Assembly (NCBI GenBank): GCA_041389885.1 | Contig: JAWKRB010000006.1 | Coordinates: 67,101-131,100, forward strand | DNA: 64,000 bases | From: Polyangiales bacterium | GTDB lineage: Bacteria; Myxococcota_A; Polyangia; Polyangiales; Ga0077539 | Direction of reading: 5' to 3' | Shown here: piece by piece, positions 18,984 to 34,480 of the stretch | Layout of the letters: each line of letters begins with the position of its first letter | Position numbering within the stretch: the first letter of the stretch is position 1 | Position numbers and translations under genes: made by a program | The notes under the pieces: model-generated | Seen by the model: the letters and a program-made list of their open reading frames with translations, nothing else | What the model was told of the DNA's origin: nothing | The model's database searches: none

Positions 18984-21038
18984 ATGGCGTCGCGCTCTTC
19001 GAAATTCCTCCTGCCTCTCGCCGCGCTGGCGTGTGTGGTCCGCAGCGCCTGGGCCGACCCGATGGACGCGGGGGCGGACGCGCGCTCCGACGCGCTGGAC
19101 GCGGCGCTCGACGTAGCGGGGGCGGTGGACGCGTCGGCGGATGGCTCGGCGGACGCGTCGGCGGATGCGCCGAGGGACGAGGCGGTCCCGGCGCCGCCTC
19201 CGGCGCCCGCGCAGGCGGATCCCGTGGTGACGGTGACCACGACGACCGCGGCTCAGCTCCCGGTGCGCGTGGTCGATTACACCCTCCGCGCGACGCTGAA
19301 CGAGACGGCGCACGTGGTGACGGGGGAGGGCACGGTGCGCTGGACGAACCCCTCGCAGGCGCCGACCCGCGAGCTCTGGCTGCATCTCTACCTCAACGCG
19401 TTTCGCTCCTCGGACACCTACTTCATGCGCGCGTGGGGCGAGCGTGAGCGCGCGCCCTCGCAGTGGGGCGGCATCGAGGTCTCTTCGCTCGGGCTCGAAG
19501 ACGGCACCGACCTGCTCCCCGGCGCGACGCACCCCTCCGAGCCCGCGGGGGACGAGACGCAGCTCCGGGTGTCGCTGCCCCGCCCGGTGGCGCCTGGGGA
19601 GACCCTCACGCTGCGCGTGGCGTGGCGCTCGACGCTCCCCGAGGTCATCGCGCGCACGGGCTTTCACGGGCGCTTTCACATGGTCGGGCAGTGGTTCCCC
19701 AAGCTCGCGGTGCTCGAGGCCGATGGGCGCTGGGTGAGCTTTCCCTTCCACGCCTACAGCGAGTTCTACGCCGACTTCGGCCGCTACGACGTCACCCTCG
19801 ACGTGCCCCGCGGGTGGACCGTGGGCGCCACCGGCCAGCGCGTGGGCGCCGTTCGCACGCAGGGCGGTCGCGACACCCACCGCTACGTCGCCGACCGCGT
19901 GCACGACTTCGCCTTCACCGCGTGGGATCAGTACGTCACCCGTGAGTCTCGCGCGGGTGGGGTCGCCGTGCGCGTGCTGCACCCCCCCGGGGCCGAGGGC
20001 GACGCGCAGCGCGTGGTGGAGCTCGCCGAGGGGATGATCCCCGCCTTCGCGCGGCGCTATGGGCCCTACCCGTACCCGAACCTCACCGTGGTGATCCCGC
20101 CGCGGGGCGCCGAGGAGGCGGGCGGGATGGAGTACCCGACGCTGATCACCACGGTGTCGGCGTGGTGGGCGCCGCGGCGCGCGAGGCTCCTCGAGTACGT
20201 GACGGTGCACGAGTTCGGGCACCAGTATTTCTACGGCCTCTTCGCGAGCAACGAGAACCGCTGGCCCTTCCTCGACGAGGGGCTCTGCGAGTACGCCACC
20301 GCCCGCGTGATGCAGGACCTCTACGGCCCCGACGGCGACCTCTTCGACATCCCCTGGCTCGCGCCGCGCCTCGGGCCGTGGGCGCTCTCCGCGGCCGGCT
20401 CGGCGTCGATCGCCGCGCCCGTGCCCGTCACCACGGCCGCCCCCGACTTCGCGACCTACGGTCGCTACGGCGGCCATGTCTACGCCCGCACGGCGACCCT
20501 CCTCCGCGGCGCCGAGCTCACCTACGGCTCCGCGCGCTTCGCCGCCGCGATGCGCGCCTACGCCGAAGACGCGCGCTTTCGCCACCCCACCCCCGACACG
20601 CTCCTGTCCGCGCTGGCCCAGGGCCTGGGCGACGACGCCGTGGAGGGATACCTGCGCCCCGCGCTGGAGGCGCCGGTGGGGGTGAACTACCGGGTCTCGG
20701 TGGTCGAGAGCGCGCGGGGCGCCGACGGCGTGCACCGCGGTCGGGTCGTGGTCGATCGAACGGGCGGCCCCGCGCTCCCGGTCGAGGTCGTGCTCGAGTC
20801 GGTCGGAGGCGCGCGGAGCGTTCACCGCGTGGCGGCGTCTGCGCTGACCACGGTGATCCCCTACTCGGGCGCGACGGCGCTGCGGGCGGCGCGGGTCGAC
20901 CCCGCCGGGCGCTTTCCCCTCGACGAGAACCGCCTCGACAACGCGAGGGTCTCGGCCGACCACGAGGCCTCGGCGGCGCCCCTCATCGCCCGCGTCGCCT
21001 ACTGGCTCGCCCTCGTCCTCGACGTGGTGGGACCATGA
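18984..21038 (+). CDS. M1-family zinc metallopeptidase (aminopeptidase N-like), secreted
   Basis: Signal peptide MASRSSKFLLPLAALACVVRSAWA. VTVHEFGHQYFYG is the HExxH zinc site, and LDEGLCEYA follows 17 residues later, matching the M1 signature HExxH-x18-E. Confidence 0.8.
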   Translation: MASRSSKFLLPLAALACVVRSAWADPMDAGADARSDALDAALDVAGAVDASADGSADASADAPRDEAVPAPPPAPAQADPVVTVTTTTAAQLPVRVVDYTLRATLNETAHVVTGEGTVRWTNPSQAPTRELWLHLYLNAFRSSDTYFMRAWGERERAPSQWGGIEVSSLGLEDGTDLLPGATHPSEPAGDETQLRVSLPRPVAPGETLTLRVAWRSTLPEVIARTGFHGRFHMVGQWFPKLAVLEADGRWVSFPFHAYSEFYADFGRYDVTLDVPRGWTVGATGQRVGAVRTQGGRDTHRYVADRVHDFAFTAWDQYVTRESRAGGVAVRVLHPPGAEGDAQRVVELAEGMIPAFARRYGPYPYPNLTVVIPPRGAEEAGGMEYPTLITTVSAWWAPRRARLLEYVTVHEFGHQYFYGLFASNENRWPFLDEGLCEYATARVMQDLYGPDGDLFDIPWLAPRLGPWALSAAGSASIAAPVPVTTAAPDFATYGRYGGHVYARTATLLRGAELTYGSARFAAAMRAYAEDARFRHPTPDTLLSALAQGLGDDAVEGYLRPALEAPVGVNYRVSVVESARGADGVHRGRVVVDRTGGPALPVEVVLESVGGARSVHRVAASALTTVIPYSGATALRAARVDPAGRFPLDENRLDNARVSADHEASAAPLIARVAYWLALVLDVVGP

Positions 21039-21880
21039 AGACCCTTCGCTGGATGCTCCGCACCGAGGGACGCGGCGCGATCGTGCTGCTCGTGTGGCTG
21101 ATGGAGTCGGCGCTCGCCTGGGCCCTCGCCGCGGCGCTGGGCAGCGCTGTTGCCGCGCCGCTGCTGCGCCACCCCTCGGGCGTCTTCGCGCTCTACGGCG
21201 AAGACGGTCGGCTGCTCATGGACTTTCTCCGCGTCAACGCGGGCGCGCTCACCACCGCGGGCGCCGCGCTGGGCGTCGCGGTCGCGCTCTGGGCGGGGGT
21301 CGGCGTGCCCCTCGGAGGCGTGGTGCCGCTCGTGGGCGCGTCTCGTATGTCGATCCCCACGGCGCCCGCGGCCTTCGGCGAGAGCCTGCGCCGGGCGCCG
21401 ACGCTCCTCGCCCTCGCGCTCCTCTCCGCGGTGGGCTACGGGCTCGTGGGCCTGCTCGGCTGGTTCGCCTGGCGCTACATCGACCGCTCGTCGCTGCACG
21501 TCGCCAACGCGCGCATGATCGACCTGCGGCACGCCGCGGTGATCGCCGCGGTGCTGCTCCTCGCGGCGCTGGTGAGCCTGTGGCACGCCCTCGCGCGCTT
21601 TCAGGCCATGGGGAGGCGCTACCGCGCGCTCTCCGCCGCCGCGTCGTCGCTCGGGCGCCTGGGGCGCGAGCCGCTGCAGACCCTCGGCCGGGCCCTGGGC
21701 TGGGCCCTGATGGCCGGCCTGGGCACGCTGGTCGCCTTCGCGGTCGGCGCCGCCCTCGACCGGCACCGGGCCCTCTGGGCCGTGGCCCTGCTCACCGCGG
21801 CGCAGCAGCTCTCGCTGCTCTGGCGCGTGCACTGCCGCATGCGCTGGTACGGCGGCCTCCCCGTCCGCGACGAGGCCTAA
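21035..21880 (+). CDS. Polytopic membrane protein, hypothetical (coupled to the M1 peptidase)
   Basis: Its ATG overlaps the peptidase stop (ATGA at 21035-21038). The product has 6-7 hydrophobic helices. Confidence 0.55.
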   Translation: MKTLRWMLRTEGRGAIVLLVWLMESALAWALAAALGSAVAAPLLRHPSGVFALYGEDGRLLMDFLRVNAGALTTAGAALGVAVALWAGVGVPLGGVVPLVGASRMSIPTAPAAFGESLRRAPTLLALALLSAVGYGLVGLLGWFAWRYIDRSSLHVANARMIDLRHAAVIAAVLLLAALVSLWHALARFQAMGRRYRALSAAASSLGRLGREPLQTLGRALGWALMAGLGTLVAFAVGAALDRHRALWAVALLTAAQQLSLLWRVHCRMRWYGGLPVRDEA

Positions 21881-22689
21881 CGGGCCGCGCGAAGTGCGCG
21901 CCGCGGGCGTACACGCGCTCGCCGGAGGTCGTTCGAACTCGAACGATCACCGCGAGGCGACGCGCGACCGACGGTCCCCGCCGTGGGCGAGCCTGGCGCG
22001 GGCAGGGGGCTGAGCTCGGCCGCCCGGCTGCCCGGCGCGGGGAACTCGAATTCCACCAGCACGCCGTCGGCCGCGTCGCTCAGCGGTCGGAGGATCGACT
22101 CGTAGTGCAGCTTCAACAGCGCGAAATACGAGCTCACGATGCTCGCGTTCTGCGACGAGAGCCGCGCGTTCGCCGTGGTCAGCAGCTCGATGCGCTCGCG
22201 AATCCGCTCGACGCCCTGCCCGATGTTGTCACCCAGGCGCGCGAGGCGGCGAACCCGGTCGATGAGCTCCCAGAAGCGGTCGGGCGCCTCGGGGGCGGGG
22301 CCGGTCAGCCCGACGCCCGCGTACCACGCCGCGACGGGCAGGTGCCTCTCCGCCAGGGCCACGAACCACCCCGGCTCCTCGCCCTCGTCCTCGACCGGTC
22401 GCGCGATGAGCTCGCCCACCTCGACGTCGGCCGCCGCGAGCAGGTCCATGAGCTCCTTGGCGCTCGCGGGGGGCTCCGCGGCCCCGAACTGCGGCTGGGG
22501 GAAGGGCAGCTCGGCGCGCAGGTGCGCGATCCACGCCTCGTTGCGCAGGTCGTTCACGTCGCCGCCTCCGAGGGCAGATTGAAACTCGGTGCGCCCCGGC
22601 TCGAGCGGCGCGCGGGGCGACGCGCCGACGCCCCGGAGGGCGCCTCGAAGCCAGCGGAGCACTCGCCGCCACCAGAGGGTCGTGCGCAT
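21877..22689 (-). CDS. Hypothetical protein, last gene of the GTPase/Hsp70-like operon
   Basis: It starts 7 nt after the Hsp70-like gene stops. The 270-aa product is acidic in the middle and has an Arg-rich disordered tail. Confidence 0.45.
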   Translation of the reverse strand: MRTTLWWRRVLRWLRGALRGVGASPRAPLEPGRTEFQSALGGGDVNDLRNEAWIAHLRAELPFPQPQFGAAEPPASAKELMDLLAAADVEVGELIARPVEDEGEEPGWFVALAERHLPVAAWYAGVGLTGPAPEAPDRFWELIDRVRRLARLGDNIGQGVERIRERIELLTTANARLSSQNASIVSSYFALLKLHYESILRPLSDAADGVLVEFEFPAPGSRAAELSPLPAPGSPTAGTVGRASPRGDRSSSNDLRRARVRPRRALRAAR

Positions 22690-22695
22690 GCGAAG

Positions 22696-25518
22696 TCACT
22701 CACGGTCGATGTCCTCGGGGTCGATGACCCCGTTGCGGCGAAAATCGAACTCCAGGCGCCAGGCCTCGAAGTGCGCGGTGAGCCCCCCGGCGGTGAGCGA
22801 GCTCGCGCCGTCGAGGTCGGCCCGGGCTTCTTCCCACGCGCCGTTGCGCTCGACCCGCAGCGCGGCGAGGGTGAGGTCGCTGGCCGTGCGCTGGGTGAAG
22901 CCCACCTGCACGCGCTTGATCCCCAAGCGCTCGCGCTCGGGCAGGCTCGTGGGGGTGAAGCGCACCTGCGCGAAGGGGATGGGCGGGTCGACGCTCCCCG
23001 CGGCGCCCGCGCGGGGCGGTCCGCGAAAGTTCTGCCCGAGCACCGCGCGCACCGCGAAGGGCTGCTCGTCGACCCAGAGCACCTCGGCGGCGTCGACCGG
23101 GCGACCGTCGGCGCGCACGATCAGCCGGTCATCGGGCATCACGAACTGCACCCCGCGGCCCTCCTGGCGGAGCACCCCGAGGTAGCGCGTGCGCTTGTGC
23201 TCGTCGATAGGCTCGACCACCAGCCGTCGCCCCTCGCCGGTCTTCGTGGTGAGCACGTAGCCGTGCGCGAGCCCGATGGCGACGCCGAACTTCGAGAGGT
23301 CGGGCCGCACCGTGCCCCGCTGCGCGGCGTGCAGGTCGAGGGTGCCGAAGCCGTGCTCCGACCCCGCGAGCTCTCGGGGTGAGAGGCAGTGCTGCGCCTG
23401 CACGGGGCGCGGCGACCTCGCGCAGGCCGCGCGCAGCCTGTCGCCCACGCCCGGCAGCTGCGCCGAGCGCCCGCTCGCCAGCATGAGCTGCACGGGCGAC
23501 TCGGGGATCCCCAGCCAGCGCTCGGCGGTCTCGAGGGCGGGCGCGAGCACCGTGGCCGCGCAGGCCTCGAGCCACGCGCGGTCGGGGAGCGCGTCGAGCA
23601 CCCGCGACACCTCGAACTCGGGGAGGTACTGCTGCGCGCGCTGCGCGAGGATGCGCCGCACGCCCGCGTCGTCGAGGGTGGTGGGCGAAGACAGCGCGAT
23701 CTTCACGCTCTCGGCGAGGTGGTAGAAGCCCAGCGTGCGGCGCTGACGCAGTCGCTCCTCGCGGGTGCGCGCGCCGTGCCTCGCGTCGTCGGCCTGCGAG
23801 AAGCGGGTGCGGAGCTTCTCCTGCTGGTCCTTCGGCACGCCGACGCGGAGCTTGCGCTTCACCTCGCGCGCGATGCGGCGGGTGATCTCGAGGCCCGCGA
23901 AGGGCAGGCCGTAGAAGTCTTCGATGGTCGAGACGATGCGGTCGCCGTCTTCGTGGATGCGCAGGAGCACCAGGTCGGTTGTGCCGCCGCCGCAGTCGAA
24001 GGTCAGGATGCGCAGCGAGCGCGGGTGGTCGACCCCGGCGCCGACCGGCGCGAAGGCGTCGAGCACGCGGTCGAGGCGCAGCGAGCCGAAGCGGTGGTAG
24101 AGCACGCCCAGCGCCGCCGCGGTGGCCTCGTCGAGGAACGTGAGGGGCGCCTCGGGGGGGTCGTCGCAGAGCCCGCGCAGCCCGCCATGCAGCAGCGCCT
24201 GCCGCGCGATGCGCTCGAGGGTTTCGCGGTCTTGCGCGAGGAACGCCACGGGGTACGAGAGCAGGATCGGGCCCACCGCGTCGATGCCGCCGTCGGCGCC
24301 GCGCACGATCTCGGTCGCGGCGAGCTCGTCGAAGACGCCGTCGAGAAAGTCCTGCGCGTGCTGCGGCGTGCGCCCGAGCTGGAGCTTGGGCGCGGGCTCG
24401 AGGTCGTCGACCTCGACCTGGTGGATCGGGTCGAGCTCTCCCGAGAGCGCGTCGCCGCGCAGCTCCTCCTCGCGGTGCGCGTGCATCGCGAGGTCGACCA
24501 GGCCCAGCGCGCGGGCGCCGATGATCTGGTCGCCGAGGGTCTCGAAGGGGTGCCCGAGCAGCCCCTCGGGCTGCGCCGCCTGCGGGATCAGCACGCTGGG
24601 GATGCCCGCGTCGCCCTCGCGCCGACCGGGGATGGGCCGTCGCGCGAGCACGCTCCAGCGCTCGATGAGGGCGCCGGGCATGAGGGGGTTGCCGACGGTC
24701 GTTCGCTCCTCGAACGACTTGGGCGGAGGCACGAACGACGCGTGCCAGGTCGGCCCGTGCAGGGTCACGTCGACGACGTGAAAATACCAGGGCGCGAGCG
24801 GGCCCTGGAGGGTGACGTCGCGCTGGCCCTCGCGCTGGGTGACCACGCTGGTCTCGTGCGTGCCGAAGTCGATGGCGACGGTGGTGCCGGTGTCTCCGTG
24901 CCGCCGCGGGGCGCGCTCGGCGAGGATCACCAGGGGCCCCTCAGGCGCGGGCACGAGCCCGAGGCGCGCCGAGGCCGCGCCGAGGAAATTGTCCCAGGGC
25001 GGCGAGGTGTCGGCGTACTCGGCCAGGGTGAGCGCGACGCGGTGCGGGTCGAGCACGAGGGCGGTCTCGACGGGGCTGCGCTGCGCGAGGTGGCGCACCC
25101 TGCGCTCGGCCGCGCCCGCGGGGCCGATCACCAGGCACTGCCCCGGCGACACCGGGTGCCACGCGACGCTGAGGGCGGCCTCGAAGTTCGTGGCGTTCTT
25201 GTAGATCCGCAGCGAGAGGTAGAGCTGCGCGAGGGACGGGCTGTCGTGGGCGGCGACGGTGGAGGTCCCGCGGGCGTCGGTGCGGCCGATGGCGTGGGCG
25301 AGGGCGGTCCCCGCGATCCACTGCCGGGGCTCGACCTCGAGGCGGATCCACTCGCGGCCGCCGTCGTCGGTGGGGAAGGTCCTCGCGTAGAGGGCGAAGC
25401 GCTCGAGCTCGCCGTCCTTCGCGAAGGCGCCGCGGCGCGAGGAGCACCCCAGCGGCAGCGTGAGGATCACCGGGTTGAGCGCCGCGCGCACGCGCAGCAC
25501 GCCGTTCTCGATCAGCAT
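22696..25518 (-). CDS. Large non-canonical Hsp70/actin-fold ATPase (~941 aa)
   Basis: Hsp70 nucleotide-binding motifs appear in the correct order: phosphate-1 TVAIDFGTHETSVV, phosphate-2 ILTFDCGGGTTDLVLL (compare DnaK IFDLGGGTFDVSIL), and adenosine LMLASGRSAQLPGVGDRL (compare LVGGSTRIPKVQ). An extra ~200-aa N-terminal region and ~240-aa C-terminal region flank them. The start MLIENG overlaps the upstream stop (ATGA at 25518). Confidence 0.7.
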   Translation of the reverse strand: MLIENGVLRVRAALNPVILTLPLGCSSRRGAFAKDGELERFALYARTFPTDDGGREWIRLEVEPRQWIAGTALAHAIGRTDARGTSTVAAHDSPSLAQLYLSLRIYKNATNFEAALSVAWHPVSPGQCLVIGPAGAAERRVRHLAQRSPVETALVLDPHRVALTLAEYADTSPPWDNFLGAASARLGLVPAPEGPLVILAERAPRRHGDTGTTVAIDFGTHETSVVTQREGQRDVTLQGPLAPWYFHVVDVTLHGPTWHASFVPPPKSFEERTTVGNPLMPGALIERWSVLARRPIPGRREGDAGIPSVLIPQAAQPEGLLGHPFETLGDQIIGARALGLVDLAMHAHREEELRGDALSGELDPIHQVEVDDLEPAPKLQLGRTPQHAQDFLDGVFDELAATEIVRGADGGIDAVGPILLSYPVAFLAQDRETLERIARQALLHGGLRGLCDDPPEAPLTFLDEATAAALGVLYHRFGSLRLDRVLDAFAPVGAGVDHPRSLRILTFDCGGGTTDLVLLRIHEDGDRIVSTIEDFYGLPFAGLEITRRIAREVKRKLRVGVPKDQQEKLRTRFSQADDARHGARTREERLRQRRTLGFYHLAESVKIALSSPTTLDDAGVRRILAQRAQQYLPEFEVSRVLDALPDRAWLEACAATVLAPALETAERWLGIPESPVQLMLASGRSAQLPGVGDRLRAACARSPRPVQAQHCLSPRELAGSEHGFGTLDLHAAQRGTVRPDLSKFGVAIGLAHGYVLTTKTGEGRRLVVEPIDEHKRTRYLGVLRQEGRGVQFVMPDDRLIVRADGRPVDAAEVLWVDEQPFAVRAVLGQNFRGPPRAGAAGSVDPPIPFAQVRFTPTSLPERERLGIKRVQVGFTQRTASDLTLAALRVERNGAWEEARADLDGASSLTAGGLTAHFEAWRLEFDFRRNGVIDPEDIDRE

Positions 25519-26081
25519 CAGGCCTCTCCCCCCTGCGCGTCGCCGTCGAGCTCCGCGAGGAGCGCCTCGAGCTGCCCCCGCGCCTGCGCGAGGAGCGCGT
25601 CGACCCCCTCGGGGAGCGCCAGCTCGCCGATCGAGCGCCGGAGCCGTCGGTACGCCTCGCCGCGCTTGGGGTCGATCCCCAGGGTGCGCGCCGCGTAGTC
25701 TTCGCGCTCCTCGCTCGAGGCGTGCAGCAGCCAGTGCACGCAGGCCGCGCAGCGCGCGAGGATGAAGTGCGTGCAGTGCACCGCGTTGCCCGGCTCGTCG
25801 GCTAGAAAGCGCTCCTCCTCGGCGCGCAGGCGCTTGAGCCCCTCGTCGGCCTCGAGCATGCGCTCCAGGGCGGGGCGCAGCGCCGCGGCGGTGTCGGCGC
25901 GCTTCGCGGCGTGCTGGGCGGCCGCGCAGGTGGCGCGCACGCACTCGGCCATGAGCAGGTCCCACGAGAGGGTCGGCGCGCCGTAGGGCTTGAGCACCGA
26001 CTGGCGCACGCTCGCGGGGAAGGGCACGGCGACCCCGACCGGCGGCAGCGACGCGCGCAGGTCGTTCACCAGCGACTCCAT
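25518..26081 (-). CDS. Small helical protein (187 aa) or the C-terminal part of a frameshifted GTPase gene
   Basis: It starts at MESLVNDL, but protein-like sequence continues upstream in the same frame (EVRRALDLADRAQGAVIDLQERL). It contains CTHFILARCAACVHW. Confidence 0.45.
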   Translation of the reverse strand: MESLVNDLRASLPPVGVAVPFPASVRQSVLKPYGAPTLSWDLLMAECVRATCAAAQHAAKRADTAAALRPALERMLEADEGLKRLRAEEERFLADEPGNAVHCTHFILARCAACVHWLLHASSEEREDYAARTLGIDPKRGEAYRRLRRSIGELALPEGVDALLAQARGQLEALLAELDGDAQGGEA

Positions 26082-26140
26082 CGCGTCGAGGGCCGCGCGG
26101 TCGGCGCGGGGCTCGCGGGTGAGCCGCTCCTGCAGGTCGA

Positions 26141-27709
26141 TCACGGCGCCCTGCGCGCGGTCGGCGAGGTCGAGGGCTCGGCGCACTTCGCGCGGCGCAG
26201 CTCGCCGCGGTGCGCGAGGTGGAGCATCAGCCGCGTGAGCAGCTCGTGGCCGCGGTCGTCGGGGTTCGCCACGGCGAGGACCACGTCGACCATCCACTCG
26301 AGGAAGCGGCGCCGCGCCGCGGGCTCGGTCGCCCGCACGCGCGACACGTCGTCGACCCACGAGCGCGCGAAGAAGTGCGCGACGCGCCACGCGAAGGGCG
26401 TGTCGTCGGGCATCGCCTCGTCGTCGAGGTGTCGCACGATCGCGCTGCGCGCCAAGGGGATATCCCCCGGCTGGACCTCGAGCGCCGGGTCGACGTGGCG
26501 GTTCTCGATGAGCACGAAGGGCGGCCACGCGCGCAGGTCGTTGGGGTCGAGGGCGTCGGCGTGGGGCTCGTCGAGGGCGCCCCGCAGGGGCTGGATCACC
26601 GAGCCGAAGACCGACTGCGGCAGCGACTGCAGGGTGTTGAACTGCCGCTCGGCCTCGGGGCGAGAGAGCTCGCGGTAGCGGTCGGCGCACTGCCGCAGCG
26701 CGTCGCCGGCGTAGGTGAGCGCGAGCACCACGCGGCCGCGCATCTGCCCGTCGCAGCGCTCGACCCAGTGTCGCCAGGGGCCGTGCAGGAGCTGCGTGCC
26801 CGGGCGGATCGCGCTGGGCTGCGACGAGCACACGAGCAGCAGCAGGTCGAGCTCGCTCACGGCCTGGCGAAAGACCAGGTGGTTCTTCACGGCCTTGAGG
26901 TGCCGCGCCGAGTCCATCTCGATCTGGGGATCGGCGCCGGGGCAGTCGACGAGGTCGAGCACCTCGAAGATGCGCGAGGCGCGGGTGCCCGCGGGGGGGC
27001 GCACCCGGAGCGTGAGCTCGCAGGCCCGGAGCTGCAGCGAGCGCAGGCGGAGCTCGCCCGTACGGAGGCGGGTCACGCGGTACTCGCCCCGGCGCTCCTC
27101 TTCGAGCTCGTAGTTCGCGTCGTCGGCGAGCGGAAAGCGGCAGACCCGCAGCGCCCTCGCGAACTCGTCGCGGTTGCCGGGCTCGAAGGTCACGTAGAGC
27201 GACGCGGGGAACTCGTCGAGGTTCGCGGCGTCTTCGGCCGCGGCGGGCTCGCGCTCGAAGGCCTCGTTGTCGAGGGTGCGCACGCGCACGGCGGCGTCGA
27301 GCTTCGCGCCCCCGCGGCGGGTAAGCCGGGTGAGGCAGCCGGTGGTGTCGGCGTCGCCGACCGGGAGCTCCTTGAGCTCTTCGAGGTCGCCGTACCAGCG
27401 CGAGAGCATGAGGGTCTTGCCCGCGTTGACCTTGCCCATGGTGGCCGCGGTGGGCTGGCGCTCGACCGCCTCGGCGAAGCGCCGCACGGCGTCGCGGGCG
27501 CGGCGCTCGAGCTCGTCCCACTCCCGCGCGATGATGGCCTGGTCCTCGGGGGGGCCCTGGCGGGCGTCGGAGATGCGCCCGGCGGCGTCGTTGAGCCAGA
27601 GCTGCCAGGTCTGCGCGAGCGCGCCGAGGGTGGCCTCGAAGGGCCGCTGCGCGACCGCCGGCGCGGGCAGGTCGGCGCCGTAGCGGGCGAGTTCGAATAC
27701 GTCGATCAT
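26141..27709 (-). CDS. P-loop GTPase, possibly dynamin-like (may continue to 25518 through a frameshift)
   Basis: Walker A is ATMGKVNAGKTLMLSRW (GxxxxGKT), a conserved Thr sits in DADTTGC, and the G3/DxxG motif is VLDLVDCPGAD (compare dynamin DLPG). The start is MIDVFELARYG. Confidence 0.6.
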   Translation of the reverse strand: MIDVFELARYGADLPAPAVAQRPFEATLGALAQTWQLWLNDAAGRISDARQGPPEDQAIIAREWDELERRARDAVRRFAEAVERQPTAATMGKVNAGKTLMLSRWYGDLEELKELPVGDADTTGCLTRLTRRGGAKLDAAVRVRTLDNEAFEREPAAAEDAANLDEFPASLYVTFEPGNRDEFARALRVCRFPLADDANYELEEERRGEYRVTRLRTGELRLRSLQLRACELTLRVRPPAGTRASRIFEVLDLVDCPGADPQIEMDSARHLKAVKNHLVFRQAVSELDLLLLVCSSQPSAIRPGTQLLHGPWRHWVERCDGQMRGRVVLALTYAGDALRQCADRYRELSRPEAERQFNTLQSLPQSVFGSVIQPLRGALDEPHADALDPNDLRAWPPFVLIENRHVDPALEVQPGDIPLARSAIVRHLDDEAMPDDTPFAWRVAHFFARSWVDDVSRVRATEPAARRRFLEWMVDVVLAVANPDDRGHELLTRLMLHLAHRGELRRAKCAEPSTSPTARRAP

Positions 27710-27790
27710 GGGCGCCGCGGAGTGTACTTCGTTCGCGACCGCGCGCAGACCGTAAGCAACGAGGGGGCTCCCACGTTTTCTACCACGCCC

Positions 27791-28843
27791 ATGCGACCGC
27801 TCTCGATCTTCTGTGCCGCGCTGCTCCAGCCCCTCGCCGCGGGCGCCTACGCCGACCACGGTCCTCCGCCGCGGGAGTCTGTCGCCCTCGTGCGCGTCTC
27901 GGGCCGGGCGAGCGTGCGGGGCGCGCGCGCGGAGGTGCGCTGCCGCAGCGGGCGTGTCCTCGAGCGCTGGGCGCGGTGCACCGTGCGCGCGGAGTACGCC
28001 CTCGAAGCCCACGGCGACGTCACCCTCGCGTCGCGGCTCCAGGCCGGCGACGAGGTGACCGTCGACGGCGCGCGACTCGGGACCGAGCTCCGGCTGGCCG
28101 AGGGCGCGCGCGCGATCGTGCGCGTCTCGGTGACGCGCAGCCTCGAGACGACGACCCGCGTGCGCGAGTCGCCCTGGGTGTTCGCGCCCATGGTCGTGCG
28201 GCACCCCTTCTTCGGCGAGAGCCGCACGCGGCGTTACCAGGGCGACCGCGCCGAGGTCGACGTGATCTCTGGAACCGACCTTGAGCTCGTCGACGAGCCG
28301 GCGCTCGACCGCGAGCACGACCCTGTCCTGCAGGTCACCTTCGATCGCGAGCGCTTGCTCGGGTCGGGGATGCGCGTTCGCCGCGCGGCCGACGCGACGC
28401 GGGCGGAGCAGTGCCTGCGCGTCGCGATCGGCCTGACGGCGCGCGAAGAACCGACGGGCCCGCTGATGAACGGCGGCCCGGTGCTCGCGCTGGGCTCGCG
28501 CATCTCGACGCAGGGCGCGCCCTCGCGCTTCATGCTGCGCGGCGCGTACGAGGTGGGTCTCTTCGAGCACCTCTTCGTGAGCGCGTCGGTCGAGACCGAC
28601 TTCGAGTCGCTGATGGAGTCGCTCGTGGTCGATGTCGCGAGCCCGAACTACGTGATCCTCATCCCGAGCTTTCGCCTGGGCGTGGGCGTCGTCGCCCGGC
28701 AGCTCGGCCCTCGGCCCGCCGACTTCGCGCTGCGCCTGCGCGCGGGGATGAACCTGCTCCCCGGCGGCTTCGACGCCGACTTCGACTACTGGCCCGAGCT
28801 GGGAGGATGGACGATCTCGCTCACCGGGCGTCTCAGCCCGTAG
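27791..28843 (+). CDS. Secreted hypothetical protein
   Basis: Signal peptide MRPLSIFCAALLQPLAAGAYA. The 350-aa product is rich in beta-type alternating patterns. Confidence 0.5.
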   Translation: MRPLSIFCAALLQPLAAGAYADHGPPPRESVALVRVSGRASVRGARAEVRCRSGRVLERWARCTVRAEYALEAHGDVTLASRLQAGDEVTVDGARLGTELRLAEGARAIVRVSVTRSLETTTRVRESPWVFAPMVVRHPFFGESRTRRYQGDRAEVDVISGTDLELVDEPALDREHDPVLQVTFDRERLLGSGMRVRRAADATRAEQCLRVAIGLTAREEPTGPLMNGGPVLALGSRISTQGAPSRFMLRGAYEVGLFEHLFVSASVETDFESLMESLVVDVASPNYVILIPSFRLGVGVVARQLGPRPADFALRLRAGMNLLPGGFDADFDYWPELGGWTISLTGRLSP

Positions 28844-30778: not shown

Positions 30779-33223
30779 ATGGGAGACAGCGATCGAGGGA
30801 GGGAGCGGGACCTGGTCCTCGCCCCCAACGAGTTTGCGTTCATTTCAGACGAGACCAAGGGGAACATCAACGTCTACGTCGGGCCCCACAAGACGAGCCT
30901 CGCGAACACCGACCGTCCGGTGGTCTTCAACTACGAGAGCAAGCGCTTCGACCGCTGCACGCTGGAGCAGGCGACGCAGACAATGGCCGTGGCTCCCGAG
31001 GGCTGGTACCTCGTGCTCAAGAACCCCGCGAAGGACAAGTCGCACCCGCGCACCGGCGCCTTGAACAACCTCCCCGACCTCGACGTGGGGCGCAAGGTGA
31101 ACACCCCCGGGCCCGTCTCGTTCGCGCTCTGGCCCGGGCAGATGGTGAAGGTGGTGCAGGGCCATCACCTCCGCTCGAACCAGTACCTCATCGCCCGCGT
31201 CTACGACGAGGAGGCCGCGAAGGAGAACTGGAAGCACGCGGTCTTCAAGCCCCGCAGCGAGTCAGACGCCGAGCGGCTCCGCGCCGAGGAGCTCACCCTC
31301 GGGCGCACGCTGGTCATCCAGGGCACCGAGGTGAGCTATCACATCCCGCCGACGGGCATCGAGGTGGTGCGCGACGAGCAGGGCCGCCACGTGCGCGAGG
31401 CCGTCACGCTGGAGCGGCTGGAGTACTGCATCCTCCTCGACGAGGACGGCAACAAGCGCTTCGTGCGCGGCCCGGCGGTGGTCTTTCCGAGGAGCACTGA
31501 GGCCTTCGTCGAGCGCGGGGGCGCGCGAAAGTTTCGCGCCATCGAGCTCAACGAGAACAGCGGGATCTTCGTCAAGGTCATCGCGCCCTACGAGGACGAG
31601 GGCCGCGCCTACAAGGTCGGCGACGAGCTCTTCATCACGGGCAAGGACCAGATGATCTACTTCCCCCGCCCCGAGCACGCGGTGGTGAAGTACAGCGACC
31701 AGGAGATCCACTACGCCCTGGCGATCCCCGCGGGCGAGGGGCGCTACGTGCTCGACCGGAACACCGGCACGATCACCCTCAAGCGCGGCCCGGCGATCTA
31801 CCTCCCCGATCCCCGCCGCGAGGTCATCGTGCGCCGCGTGCTCGACGAGCGCGCGGTGCGCCTGTGGTTCCCCGGCAACGAGCAGGCGGTGGTGGCGAAC
31901 CAGCGCCTCGCGGAGATTCAGCGGCGCAGCGGCGCGTCGGAGCCGCGCGCGGAGGGGGTGGCGCGGCCGGCTCCCGCGCCCGCCGGGGCGCCCGCCGAGG
32001 CCGCCGCGGTCTCGAAGGCCAGCTTCGCGGGCGACGACTTTCACCGCCGCCAGAACTTCACGCCCCCGCGGCAGCTCGTGCTCGACACCAAGTACGAGGG
32101 CGCCGTCTCGATCTCGGTGTGGACCGGCTACGCGGTGATGGTGGTCAACCGCACCGGCGAGCGCAGGGTGATCGTCGGCCCGCACACCCACCTGCTGGAG
32201 TACGACGAGTCGCTGCAGGCCCTGGAGCTGAGCACGGGCACGCCCAAGAGCGACGCGAGCCTCTTTCGCACGGCGTACCTCCGGGTGCTGCACAACAAGG
32301 TCAGCGACGAGGTGCACGCCGAGACCCGGGACCTCTGCAAGGTGCGCCTCACGCTCTCGTACCGCGTCGATTTCGACGGCGACCCGAACCGCTGGTTCAA
32401 CGCCGAGAACTACGTGAAGTTCCTCACCGACCACCTGCGGTCGCTGCTGCGGCACGCGATCAAGCAGTGCGGCGTCGAGGACTTCTACGCCCGCTCGACC
32501 ACCCTCGTGCGCGACGTGATCCTCGGCGCCCAGGGGGAGGACGGCAAGCGCCCTGGGCGCGCCTTCGCCGAGAACGGGATGCGGGTCTACGACGTCGAGG
32601 TGCTCGACGTGACCCTCGGCGACGAGCCCATCGCCGACCTGCTCACCGAGGCGCAGCACGCGGCGGTGCGCCAGGCCCTCGCGGTGAGCGCCGAGCGCCG
32701 CAGGCTGGAGCTCACCCGCGAGGTCGAGACGACCCGGCAGCAGGTGCTCGGGCTGCAGAACGAGTCGCGACTCACCGAGGCCGAGCTGAGGCTGAAGGAG
32801 CTCGCCGCGCAGCTCAGCGTGCAGCAGGCCGAGGTGCGCAACGAGGCGACGGTGAGGGCGCAGCGGCAGGAGGCGCAGCGCGCCGAGCAGCCGCTCCTCG
32901 ACGCGGTGCACGGCGCCGAGCTCGCCCGACTCCGCGCCAAGGCCGAGCAGGACCAGGCCCTCGCGAAGACCGCGCTCGACCAGCGCCTCACCGCCCTCGG
33001 CGCCGAGGTGCGCGCGGTGGTCGACAAGGCCCAGGCGGTCTCGCCCGACCTCATCGCGGCGCTCCAGGCCTTCTCCGACCGCGCGCTCGCCGAGCGCATG
33101 GCCGAGAGCATGGCGCCGCTGGCGATCCTCGGCGGAGAGAGCGTCGCCGCCGTGCTCGCGCGGCTCCTCGAGGGCACGCCCCTCGCGAAGGCCCTCCCCA
33201 CGGGCGCGCCCAAGCAGCCCTGA
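30779..33223 (+). CDS. Major vault protein (MVP) homologue
   Basis: The N-terminal MVP-repeat region aligns with human MVP: LAPNEFAFISDETKGNINVYVGPHKTSLANTDRPVV against [36 protein letters not shown], and TMAVAPEGWYLVLKNP against RMVTVPPRHYCTVANP. The shoulder region aligns too: NGMRVYDVEVLDVTLGDEPIADLLTEAQHAAVRQALAVSAE against [40 protein letters not shown]. A long C-terminal coiled coil is present, as in the MVP cap-helix. Confidence 0.8.
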   Translation: MGDSDRGRERDLVLAPNEFAFISDETKGNINVYVGPHKTSLANTDRPVVFNYESKRFDRCTLEQATQTMAVAPEGWYLVLKNPAKDKSHPRTGALNNLPDLDVGRKVNTPGPVSFALWPGQMVKVVQGHHLRSNQYLIARVYDEEAAKENWKHAVFKPRSESDAERLRAEELTLGRTLVIQGTEVSYHIPPTGIEVVRDEQGRHVREAVTLERLEYCILLDEDGNKRFVRGPAVVFPRSTEAFVERGGARKFRAIELNENSGIFVKVIAPYEDEGRAYKVGDELFITGKDQMIYFPRPEHAVVKYSDQEIHYALAIPAGEGRYVLDRNTGTITLKRGPAIYLPDPRREVIVRRVLDERAVRLWFPGNEQAVVANQRLAEIQRRSGASEPRAEGVARPAPAPAGAPAEAAAVSKASFAGDDFHRRQNFTPPRQLVLDTKYEGAVSISVWTGYAVMVVNRTGERRVIVGPHTHLLEYDESLQALELSTGTPKSDASLFRTAYLRVLHNKVSDEVHAETRDLCKVRLTLSYRVDFDGDPNRWFNAENYVKFLTDHLRSLLRHAIKQCGVEDFYARSTTLVRDVILGAQGEDGKRPGRAFAENGMRVYDVEVLDVTLGDEPIADLLTEAQHAAVRQALAVSAERRRLELTREVETTRQQVLGLQNESRLTEAELRLKELAAQLSVQQAEVRNEATVRAQRQEAQRAEQPLLDAVHGAELARLRAKAEQDQALAKTALDQRLTALGAEVRAVVDKAQAVSPDLIAALQAFSDRALAERMAESMAPLAILGGESVAAVLARLLEGTPLAKALPTGAPKQP

Positions 33224-33727: not shown

Positions 33728-34471
33728 TCAGCGCCGCCCCCGCGAGCCGCCGCTCCGCCGCCCCCGCGGGGTCGAGAAGCTCGCCCAGAGCCGCTCGAAC
33801 TCGCGGCTGAAGGACTCGACCAGCGCGGCGTCTTCGGTCACCACGACGTTCTCCTGGTTGTAGTTCGCGGCGCTGCGGGTCCAGTTGTAGCTCCCGGTGA
33901 GCAGGCGCGCGTCGTCGAAGATCGCGAACTTGTGGTGCATGTGCGCGTCGGTGTCGTCGACGCGGGTCTCGACGCCCGCGTCGCGCAGCGCCAGCACGTC
34001 GGAGCCCTCGTCGCCGGCCTTGTCGTTGTCGCTGATGATCCGCAGGCGCACGCCCCTGCGCCGCGCGCCGAGCATCGCCGAGCGAATGCGGTCGTCGGTG
34101 ATGGTGAACACGCACACGTCCGCGCGGTGACGGGCGCGGTCGAACTCCTCGCGGATGAGGTCGAGGCAGTCGTCGCCGGGGCTGAAGCACGCGCGCGACG
34201 CGGGCGCTGCCCTCGACGCGTCGGCGAGCTTGACCAGCCAGCCCAGCGCGTCGCGCATCGCGGCCGACGACTTCGCGGCCTGCGCGATCGCGACGGCCTG
34301 CGCGCAGAAGACCGTGAGCGCCTCGGGGTCGAGCGGGCCGTGGGCGAGCACCGCGTCGACCCTCTGCCGCGTCGAGGCGGGGATGCGCGGGTCGCGCAGG
34401 GTGCGCTCGATCAGGGCTTCGAGCTCGCGGGTGCTCACGTCAGGGTCCTCACGCCGCGTACCGTAGTACAC
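33728..34471 (-). CDS. Phospholipase D-superfamily protein with a single HKD motif (Nuc-like)
   Basis: AHMHHKFAIFDDARLLTGSYNWTRSAANYNQEN is one canonical HxKx4Dx6GSxN motif. The 247-aa size fits a Nuc-type single-HKD protein. The start codon is probably GTG. Confidence 0.75.
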   Translation of the reverse strand: MYYGTRREDPDVSTRELEALIERTLRDPRIPASTRQRVDAVLAHGPLDPEALTVFCAQAVAIAQAAKSSAAMRDALGWLVKLADASRAAPASRACFSPGDDCLDLIREEFDRARHRADVCVFTITDDRIRSAMLGARRRGVRLRIISDNDKAGDEGSDVLALRDAGVETRVDDTDAHMHHKFAIFDDARLLTGSYNWTRSAANYNQENVVVTEDAALVESFSREFERLWASFSTPRGRRSGGSRGRR

Positions 34472-34480
34472 GGCGCGGGC

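Follow-up and report, generated by a model that had tools for sequence, protein, structure and literature searches.

A three-gene cassette of Myxococcota that pairs an Hsp70-fold ATPase with a P-loop NTPase and probably represents a divergent SrfB/SrfC core

Among described bacterial systems, the srfABC operons offer the closest counterparts to the locus considered here; their large products SrfB (PF07520) and SrfC (PF10139) are SsrB-regulated factors in Salmonella, and the Xenorhabdus version is referred to as the "SrfABC toxin". SrfABC has been treated as a tripartite cytotoxin (PMC6950479), and SrfA has been modelled as the membrane platform of the SrfABC complex (bioRxiv 10.64898/2026.09.18.752743). 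The label "virulence factor" or "toxin" is widespread in annotations of the system; no paper was found that gives its large subunits a biochemical identity, and a literature search on the mechanism of SrfB and SrfC, on conflict systems combining an Hsp70 with a dynamin, and on the Pfam accessions returned nothing mechanistic. Genuine SrfB genes are followed by an adjacent, overlapping SrfC (Pfam Virul_Fac) gene. A related pair of genes is located in a stretch of 64,000 nucleotides from a Polyangiales bacterium (assembly GCA_041389885.1, contig JAWKRB010000006.1, positions 67,101 to 131,100), which is hereafter called the window and numbered from its first letter. There, a minus-strand cassette encodes a predicted dynamin-type P-loop nucleoside triphosphatase (NTPase) resembling SrfC (gene A), an Hsp70-fold ATPase resembling SrfB (gene B) and a soluble orphan protein (gene C). 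The original prediction, made from the letters of the window, had proposed the locus as a candidate for an undescribed system; profile comparison instead suggests that the A–B pairing is not wholly undescribed and belongs, as a remote branch, with the SrfC/SrfB pair known from srfABC operons.

The G+C content of the window is about 73%, a value at which long spurious open reading frames (ORFs) are common, and third-position GC (GC3) was therefore chosen to locate the true reading frames. The GC3 frame plot and translation reveal that the minus strand is coding without interruption between 27709 and 21877, the frame changing near 26140 and 25520; this block is bordered by a divergent plus-strand gene (27791–28843) and a convergent plus-strand gene for a membrane protein (21035–21880). 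Translation of this block recovers the four ORFs that had been read as a four-gene operon, each at its predicted place, but the true unit is a translationally coupled cassette of three genes in the order A, B, C, the first two ORFs being one gene. Gene A (25518..27709, minus strand) would encode about 730 aa when intact and is split here into ORFs of 522 aa (27709..26141) and 208 aa (26144..25518). A search with the first ORF found an identical 522-aa entry, which belongs to an NCBI Polyangiales metagenome-assembled genome (MAG) that is evidently the origin of the window, and 23 full-length homologues, all of them single proteins of 728–744 aa that span the sequence of the first ORF and then that of the second. 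Moreover, DNA alignments to seven related loci (L035, L001, L008, L009, L010, L012 and L020) place the loss of a single T at 26175..26176, where GAGC-CCTCGAC stands in the window against GAGCTCCTCGAC; this T is missing in comparison with every relative, the 93%-identical contig L035 included, and the gene is intact in all of the relatives, about 25 in number. The two ORFs are consequently one gene of 730 aa, the "small helical protein" once listed as a separate product belongs to A itself as its helical C-terminal part, and the apparent GTGA coupling between them is an artefact of the frameshift. Gene B (22696..25518, minus strand) starts at ATG 25518 and encodes 940 aa, one fewer than predicted; its start overlaps the stop codon of A by 1 nt in the sequence TGATG. 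A spacer of 6 nt, rather than 7, separates B from gene C (21877..22689, minus strand), which encodes 270 aa.

Protein B is an Hsp70-fold (ASKHA) ATPase with intact catalytic residues, in which a nucleotide-binding domain with insertions is flanked by N-terminal and C-terminal beta-rich domains. As the original prediction had noticed, all of the Hsp70 nucleotide-binding motifs are present in canonical order; they extend over 23449..24876 on the minus strand and comprise AIDFGT (24876–24859), a lysine motif APKLQL (24396–24376), LDEATAA (24135–24115), FDCGGGTTD (24000–23974) and SGRSAQLPG (23478–23449). Residues D218, K379, E465, D509 and G511 (numbers taken from alignments, which exceed the native numbering by 1) are invariant over 21 sequences at 21–27% identity, and the equivalents of DnaK D8, K70, E171, D194 and T199 are likewise invariant across the family, so that the phosphate-1, connect, phosphate-2 and adenosine motifs of an actin-fold nucleotide-binding domain are found together with its D/K/E/D/T residues. 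Searched against the PDB, the B-family profile matches Hsp70 nucleotide-binding domains at E values of 1e-9 to 1e-5 over the phosphate-2 and IIB/adenosine segments, and a Foldseek search with the confident parts of the AlphaFold model of B (overall predicted local distance difference test (pLDDT) score 55) returns Hsp70s as all of its top 50 matches. The remainder of the protein is unlike Hsp70, again in line with the first description of the locus. No Hsp70 substrate-binding domain is detected, full chains of DnaK, Ssb and BiP being matched in their nucleotide-binding segments only, with the qualification that the C-terminal beta-rich region is modelled at low confidence and may conceal a cryptic fold resemblance to that domain. 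Similarly, no J-domain or GrpE gene, whose absence nearby had also been predicted, occurs in the cassette, among the scanned neighbours (about 9.8–39 kb of the window) or in related loci. Pfam HSP70 gives no match to B of the window, and with NCBIfam DnaK it reaches 12.9 bits, the cut-off being 1019. Identification of B as an ordinary DnaK paralogue was rejected for its lack of a substrate-binding domain and from its relatives: when 1.84 billion representative proteins were searched with the B-family profile, there were 40 matches, a sign of the rarity of the family, and the 11 of these that were checked against Pfam are SrfB-like or unannotated, none being a canonical Hsp70 such as DnaK or HscA.

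Profile comparison shows that B and SrfB are homologous over their full length. The B profile matches a bona fide SrfB (Pfam E 2e-206) at E 1e-7; in hhalign comparisons, the B family aligns with one SrfB sequence at a probability of 96.6%, and with three SrfB sequences at 98.5% and E 2.5e-15, columns 4–954 being paired with columns 18–977 from end to end. Moreover, two distant B relatives, P0054 and P0055, reach the gathering score of Pfam SrfB (27.5 and 30.4 bits).

Protein A is probably a remote homologue of SrfC, a conclusion drawn with moderate confidence from profile alignments. The A family aligns with two SrfC alignments by hhalign at scores of 54–56, E 1.3e-5 to 2.2e-5 and probabilities of 76–81%, whereas reversed, column-shuffled and unrelated control profiles reach scores of 18–23 at E > 0.15. 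The signatures G1, G2 and G3 fall in register between the two families, and a later W...DxG signature aligns as well. On the minus strand of the window, the Walker A (G1) motif GKVNAGKT occupies 27413..27436, its G92, K93, G97 and K98 being invariant even in distant members; switch I (G2), PVGDADTTGCLTRLT, which contains DADTTG, occupies 27332..27361 and aligns with INPxGxESTGLVTRFT of SrfC; and the G3 motif DLVDCPGA (DxxG) occupies 26933..26956 and aligns with DLLDFPGAR. Across the A family, GKxxxGKT, PxGxxDTTGCLTRLT and DxVDxPGA are invariant, and the SrfC consensus has GPSQAGKS at G1 and LTKFD at G4. This last position is the exception: extended hhalign and family alignments place LTYAG (26705..26719) opposite LTKFD, and the A family carries LT(Y/H)A(G/A) here, the K and D being absent. 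The predicted GTPase motifs are present as GKVNAGKT, DADTTG and DLVDCPGA, but the designation "GTPase" is unproven because the TKxD motif of SrfC, the G4 determinant of guanine specificity, is missing.

The further description of A as dynamin-like is drawn from these motifs and from sub-threshold matches to Pfam Dynamin_N, which occur in 3 of 10 members (best E 0.0013, in the Thiomargarita homologue, over the G3 region). Likeness to the dynamin superfamily, which includes bacterial dynamin-like proteins and LeoA/Eleos, lies in the GxxxxGKT G1 motif, the hhhDxPG G3 motif and a long helical region that makes up the C-terminal half of A in the AlphaFold model; switch I of A (LPxG...TG.LTRLT) also resembles LPRGSGIVTRRP of dynamin. 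Differences lie in the G4 motif without K and D and in the lack of membrane-binding or transmembrane elements. Dynamin-1 in the PDB compares with the A-family profile at E 0.43, PADLOC Eleos matches none of the cassette proteins, profiles of the A family, SrfC and SrfB find no sequence match in the PDB, and the model of A, whose G domain has a pLDDT below 50, gives no meaningful Foldseek match.

Taken as a whole, the cassette is probably a very divergent variant of the two-NTPase core formed by SrfB and SrfC, without SrfA and with the gene order inverted. SrfB is an ATPase of about 950–1040 aa, comparable with B over its full length, and SrfC is the product of an adjacent, overlapping gene, a P-loop NTPase that shares G1, G2, G3 and the later DxG with A; the two genes of each pair are tightly coupled. 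In contrast, the SrfC-like gene lies upstream of its partner in the cassette and downstream in srfABC operons, A has about 730 aa rather than the 860–900 aa or so of SrfC and lacks the large insert that SrfC has between switch I and G3, canonical SrfB is less similar in sequence to Hsp70 than the B family is, and the third gene, C, is unrelated. With Hsp70s (DnaK, HscA, HscC, Hsp110), B shares the nucleotide-binding motifs and catalytic residues, and no other solved structures match it better in sequence or fold; it differs from Hsp70s in having no detectable substrate-binding domain or lid, in its family-specific N-terminal and C-terminal domains of about 200 aa each and large insertions, and in the absence of a J-protein or GrpE partner from the cassette. 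Several observations weigh against the SrfB/SrfC assignment. The link between A and SrfC is moderately significant, with a confident core of about 85 columns that covers the P-loop and switch I. A and B of the window fall below both Pfam thresholds: PF10139 gives no match at E <= 1 to the window fragment, to the intact homologue P0029 or to any of 10 family members, and B scores 16.6 bits (E 0.002) with PF07520, below the gathering score of 27.1; when the four ORFs were scanned directly with Pfam, NCBIfam and PADLOC, every match stayed below threshold. The AlphaFold models of B and A are poor (mean pLDDT 55 and 61, respectively, from shallow alignments of close relatives), so that the dynamin-like fold of A and an A–B interface are putative. 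Finally, the cassette lacks SrfA, the reported platform of SrfABC, and no experiment or paper was found in which SrfB or SrfC is given a biochemical activity.

The pairing of the two NTPases is a conserved property of the locus, as all related loci examined, from more than one phylum, retain the linkage, which bears out the pairing proposed in the original prediction. The order A-B-C is kept in 19 of 19 Myxococcota species-representative loci of the GTDB and in several Logan contigs, with lengths of about 730 aa for A, about 940 aa for B and about 255–285 aa for C, and wherever a Myxococcota contig runs beyond the end of B, which is so at 19 loci, C comes after it. Among distant relatives, B-family members at 21–27% identity likewise lie directly downstream of an A homologue, namely those of Thiomargarita (L027), bacterium HR36 (L028) and three metagenomic contigs (L030, L031 and L034); a metagenome scan for distant B relatives returned one locus. 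In locus L033 (451–4464), a 216-aa remnant of A, limited to the Walker A region, precedes a distant B homologue, and a fragment of IS66 TnpB lies after it; this looks like a degraded copy. Both A and B are under purifying selection: in comparison with L035, the ratio of nonsynonymous to synonymous substitution rates (dN/dS) is 0.007 for the first half of A, 0.079 for the second half, beyond the frameshift site, and 0.065 for B. Such strong selection, together with the intact catalytic residues of B, its closest solved relatives and a stable chromosomal position over much of the clade, would suit a specialised chaperone or protein-remodelling system for an ordinary cellular process, in which B is an Hsp70 dedicated to its client and A a co-factor that depends on nucleotide. 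This explanation is improbable, however, since B has no similarity to the substrate-binding domain, J-domain and GrpE partners are not nearby, presence in 19 of 185,579 species representatives is far too rare for housekeeping, and the cassette is dispensable enough to carry frameshifts in the window.

Protein C is restricted to the Myxococcota clade, with no detectable relatives outside it. Comparisons with Pfam, the PDB, the protein at the SrfA position (probability 0.3%) and the proteins encoded after SrfC revealed no similarity, and C contains no recognisable effector domain. It evolves faster than its neighbours, identity being 36–50% for C versus 64–78% for A and B. The small Arg-tailed protein of the first description corresponds to C, but the Arg-rich tail is not native. 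Comparison with relatives identifies three 1-nt deletions at 21960, 21958 and 21893 (minus strand, 21893..21960) with a net change of -3, which exchange the conserved VLCPAVIVRVRTTSGERVYSRGAHF for ASPRGDRSSSNDLRRARVRPRRAL; about 22 conserved C-terminal residues are thereby rewritten, and the tail stands where all relatives keep the segment RVLCPAxxVRL…RGAHVR. In the Polyangiales MAG of locus L010 (JAWKRC010000038.1, 10836–11533), gene C is also frame-broken, being found by tblastn as two segments in different frames.

The deletion that breaks the frame of A, and the three by which a conserved segment of C is rewritten, raise the question of whether the cassette in this organism is a decaying pseudogene remnant without remaining function. 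Random assembly error is not an obvious cause of these lesions, given that the 17 kb syntenic with L001 contain no further coding frame-break. On the other hand, dN/dS remains low in A past the frameshift and B is intact at 0.065, and each of the four lesions removes a single base, as consensus errors can do too. The low dN/dS beyond the frameshift indicates that the lesions are either very recent or errors of consensus or assembly; hence, the window copy has either been inactivated very recently or been mis-assembled, and a remnant already devoid of function is a serious possibility, albeit not the favoured one. Because an apparent fourth gene and an unusual Arg tail both proved to be frameshift products, gene calls in the MAG of the window should be compared with relatives.

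The surroundings of the cassette bear on whether it might instead be an undescribed anti-phage or abortive-infection system, with A and B as nucleotide-switch sensors or motors and C as a variable effector or specificity subunit. A patchy and rare distribution, the fast evolution of C, and inactivating lesions in the window and in C of L010, of a kind common in defence genes, would all fit such a role. Two contexts are also suggestive: in L005 (CAYUSB010000013.1, 13918–20176) the cassette adjoins HEPN_RiboL-PSP, GmrSD_N, TIR_2 and Imm10 genes, the only clearly defence-island-like context, and in L038 (JBGARZ010000003.1, 1–4415) the type I-E genes cas3, cse1 and cse2 are found 5.6 kb upstream. 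A defence-island setting, which the original prediction had raised as a point to check, is encountered in 2 of 5 distinct contexts elsewhere but is absent from the window, where no recognised defence system occurs among the scanned neighbours and the genes nearby encode two M1 peptidases, a TonB-dependent receptor, a vault-protein homologue, a GGDEF protein, a cation-efflux (CDF) protein, a PLD-like protein and parts of a pilus or type II secretion system. No product of the four ORFs matches PADLOC-DB 2.0 at E <= 1, C offers no effector domain, and the downstream genes (a hydrolase, an acetyltransferase, a 282-aa membrane protein and an M1 peptidase) recur in divergent Myxococcota genomes, which suggests vertical inheritance at a stable site. 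An anti-phage function of this type is therefore rather unlikely.

Other features of these loci may be recorded separately. The divergent intergenic region upstream of A (27710..27790, 81 bp, delimited by the gene starts) is the presumed promoter site; no match to the sigma-70 consensus was found in it, and a promoter and terminator scan of the locus yielded nothing above chance. One terminator-like hairpin at 24787–24808 (minus strand) lies within gene B and is probably fortuitous, as the count equals the shuffled expectation. About 1.1 kb of the window (27738–28841), between an M1 peptidase gene and A, is not present in the otherwise syntenic L001; within it, the plus-strand gene at 27791–28843 encodes a 350-aa orphan without a Pfam match, whose N-terminus resembles a signal peptide. 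The vault-protein homologue (30779–33223, plus strand) is an 814-aa relative of the eukaryotic major vault protein (MVP_shoulder E 5e-26, Vault_3) and is syntenic with L001. The PLD-like protein (33728–34480, minus strand; 250 aa, PLDc_2 E 2.5e-29) has generic DrmC/MkoB-type PADLOC matches and is isolated, forming part of no recognisable defence system. Elsewhere, a GAF histidine kinase gene immediately precedes the cassette in L038, and a Mesorhizobium locus (L036, AYWQ01000007.1, 2903–17318) contains a canonical SrfB-SrfC pair among a trypsin-like protease and several PAN-domain proteins; in L036 and L029, a gene of about 320–340 aa overlaps the end of srfC.

Myxococcota are often predatory, and the homology of B to SrfB, with the probable homology of A to SrfC, could be taken to mean that the cassette encodes a tripartite cytotoxin like that of Xenorhabdus, delivered to eukaryotic or bacterial prey. 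The cytotoxicity reported for SrfABC (PMC6950479) would agree with such a function. Nevertheless, no SrfA homologue was found, neither signal peptides nor transmembrane segments were found in A, B or C, secretion genes are not linked to the cassette across loci, and relatives exist in Thiomargarita and in a hot-spring bacterium; a delivered toxin is accordingly very improbable.

In the mechanism proposed here, A and B would be made in matched amounts and would form a cytoplasmic complex, in which nucleotide-gated self-association of the dynamin-like A may be coupled to ATP-driven cycling of the Hsp70-like B between open and closed states. The complex would act on a client, and C may be an adaptor or regulator peculiar to this lineage. 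Biologically, the cassette most likely has an accessory or conflict-related function and not a housekeeping one. A more far-reaching suggestion, put forward tentatively, is that the A–B pair exemplifies an unrecognised, phylum-spanning class of cytoplasmic dual-NTPase machines with one dynamin-like and one Hsp70-like member, of which the SrfABC "toxins" would be only a membrane-anchored offshoot. In this view, the cassette of Myxococcota, whose C evolves fast, would not be a secreted toxin but would work inside the cell as a module of conflict or defence.

For the family at large, the locus suggests that the SrfB lineage consists of Hsp70-fold ATPases and the SrfC lineage of dynamin-type P-loop NTPases, and that proteins of the two lineages travel together even without SrfA, in free-living bacteria of several phyla. 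The conserved core of a system known as a virulence factor would thereby be recast as a two-NTPase machine, from which simple catalytic mutants follow.

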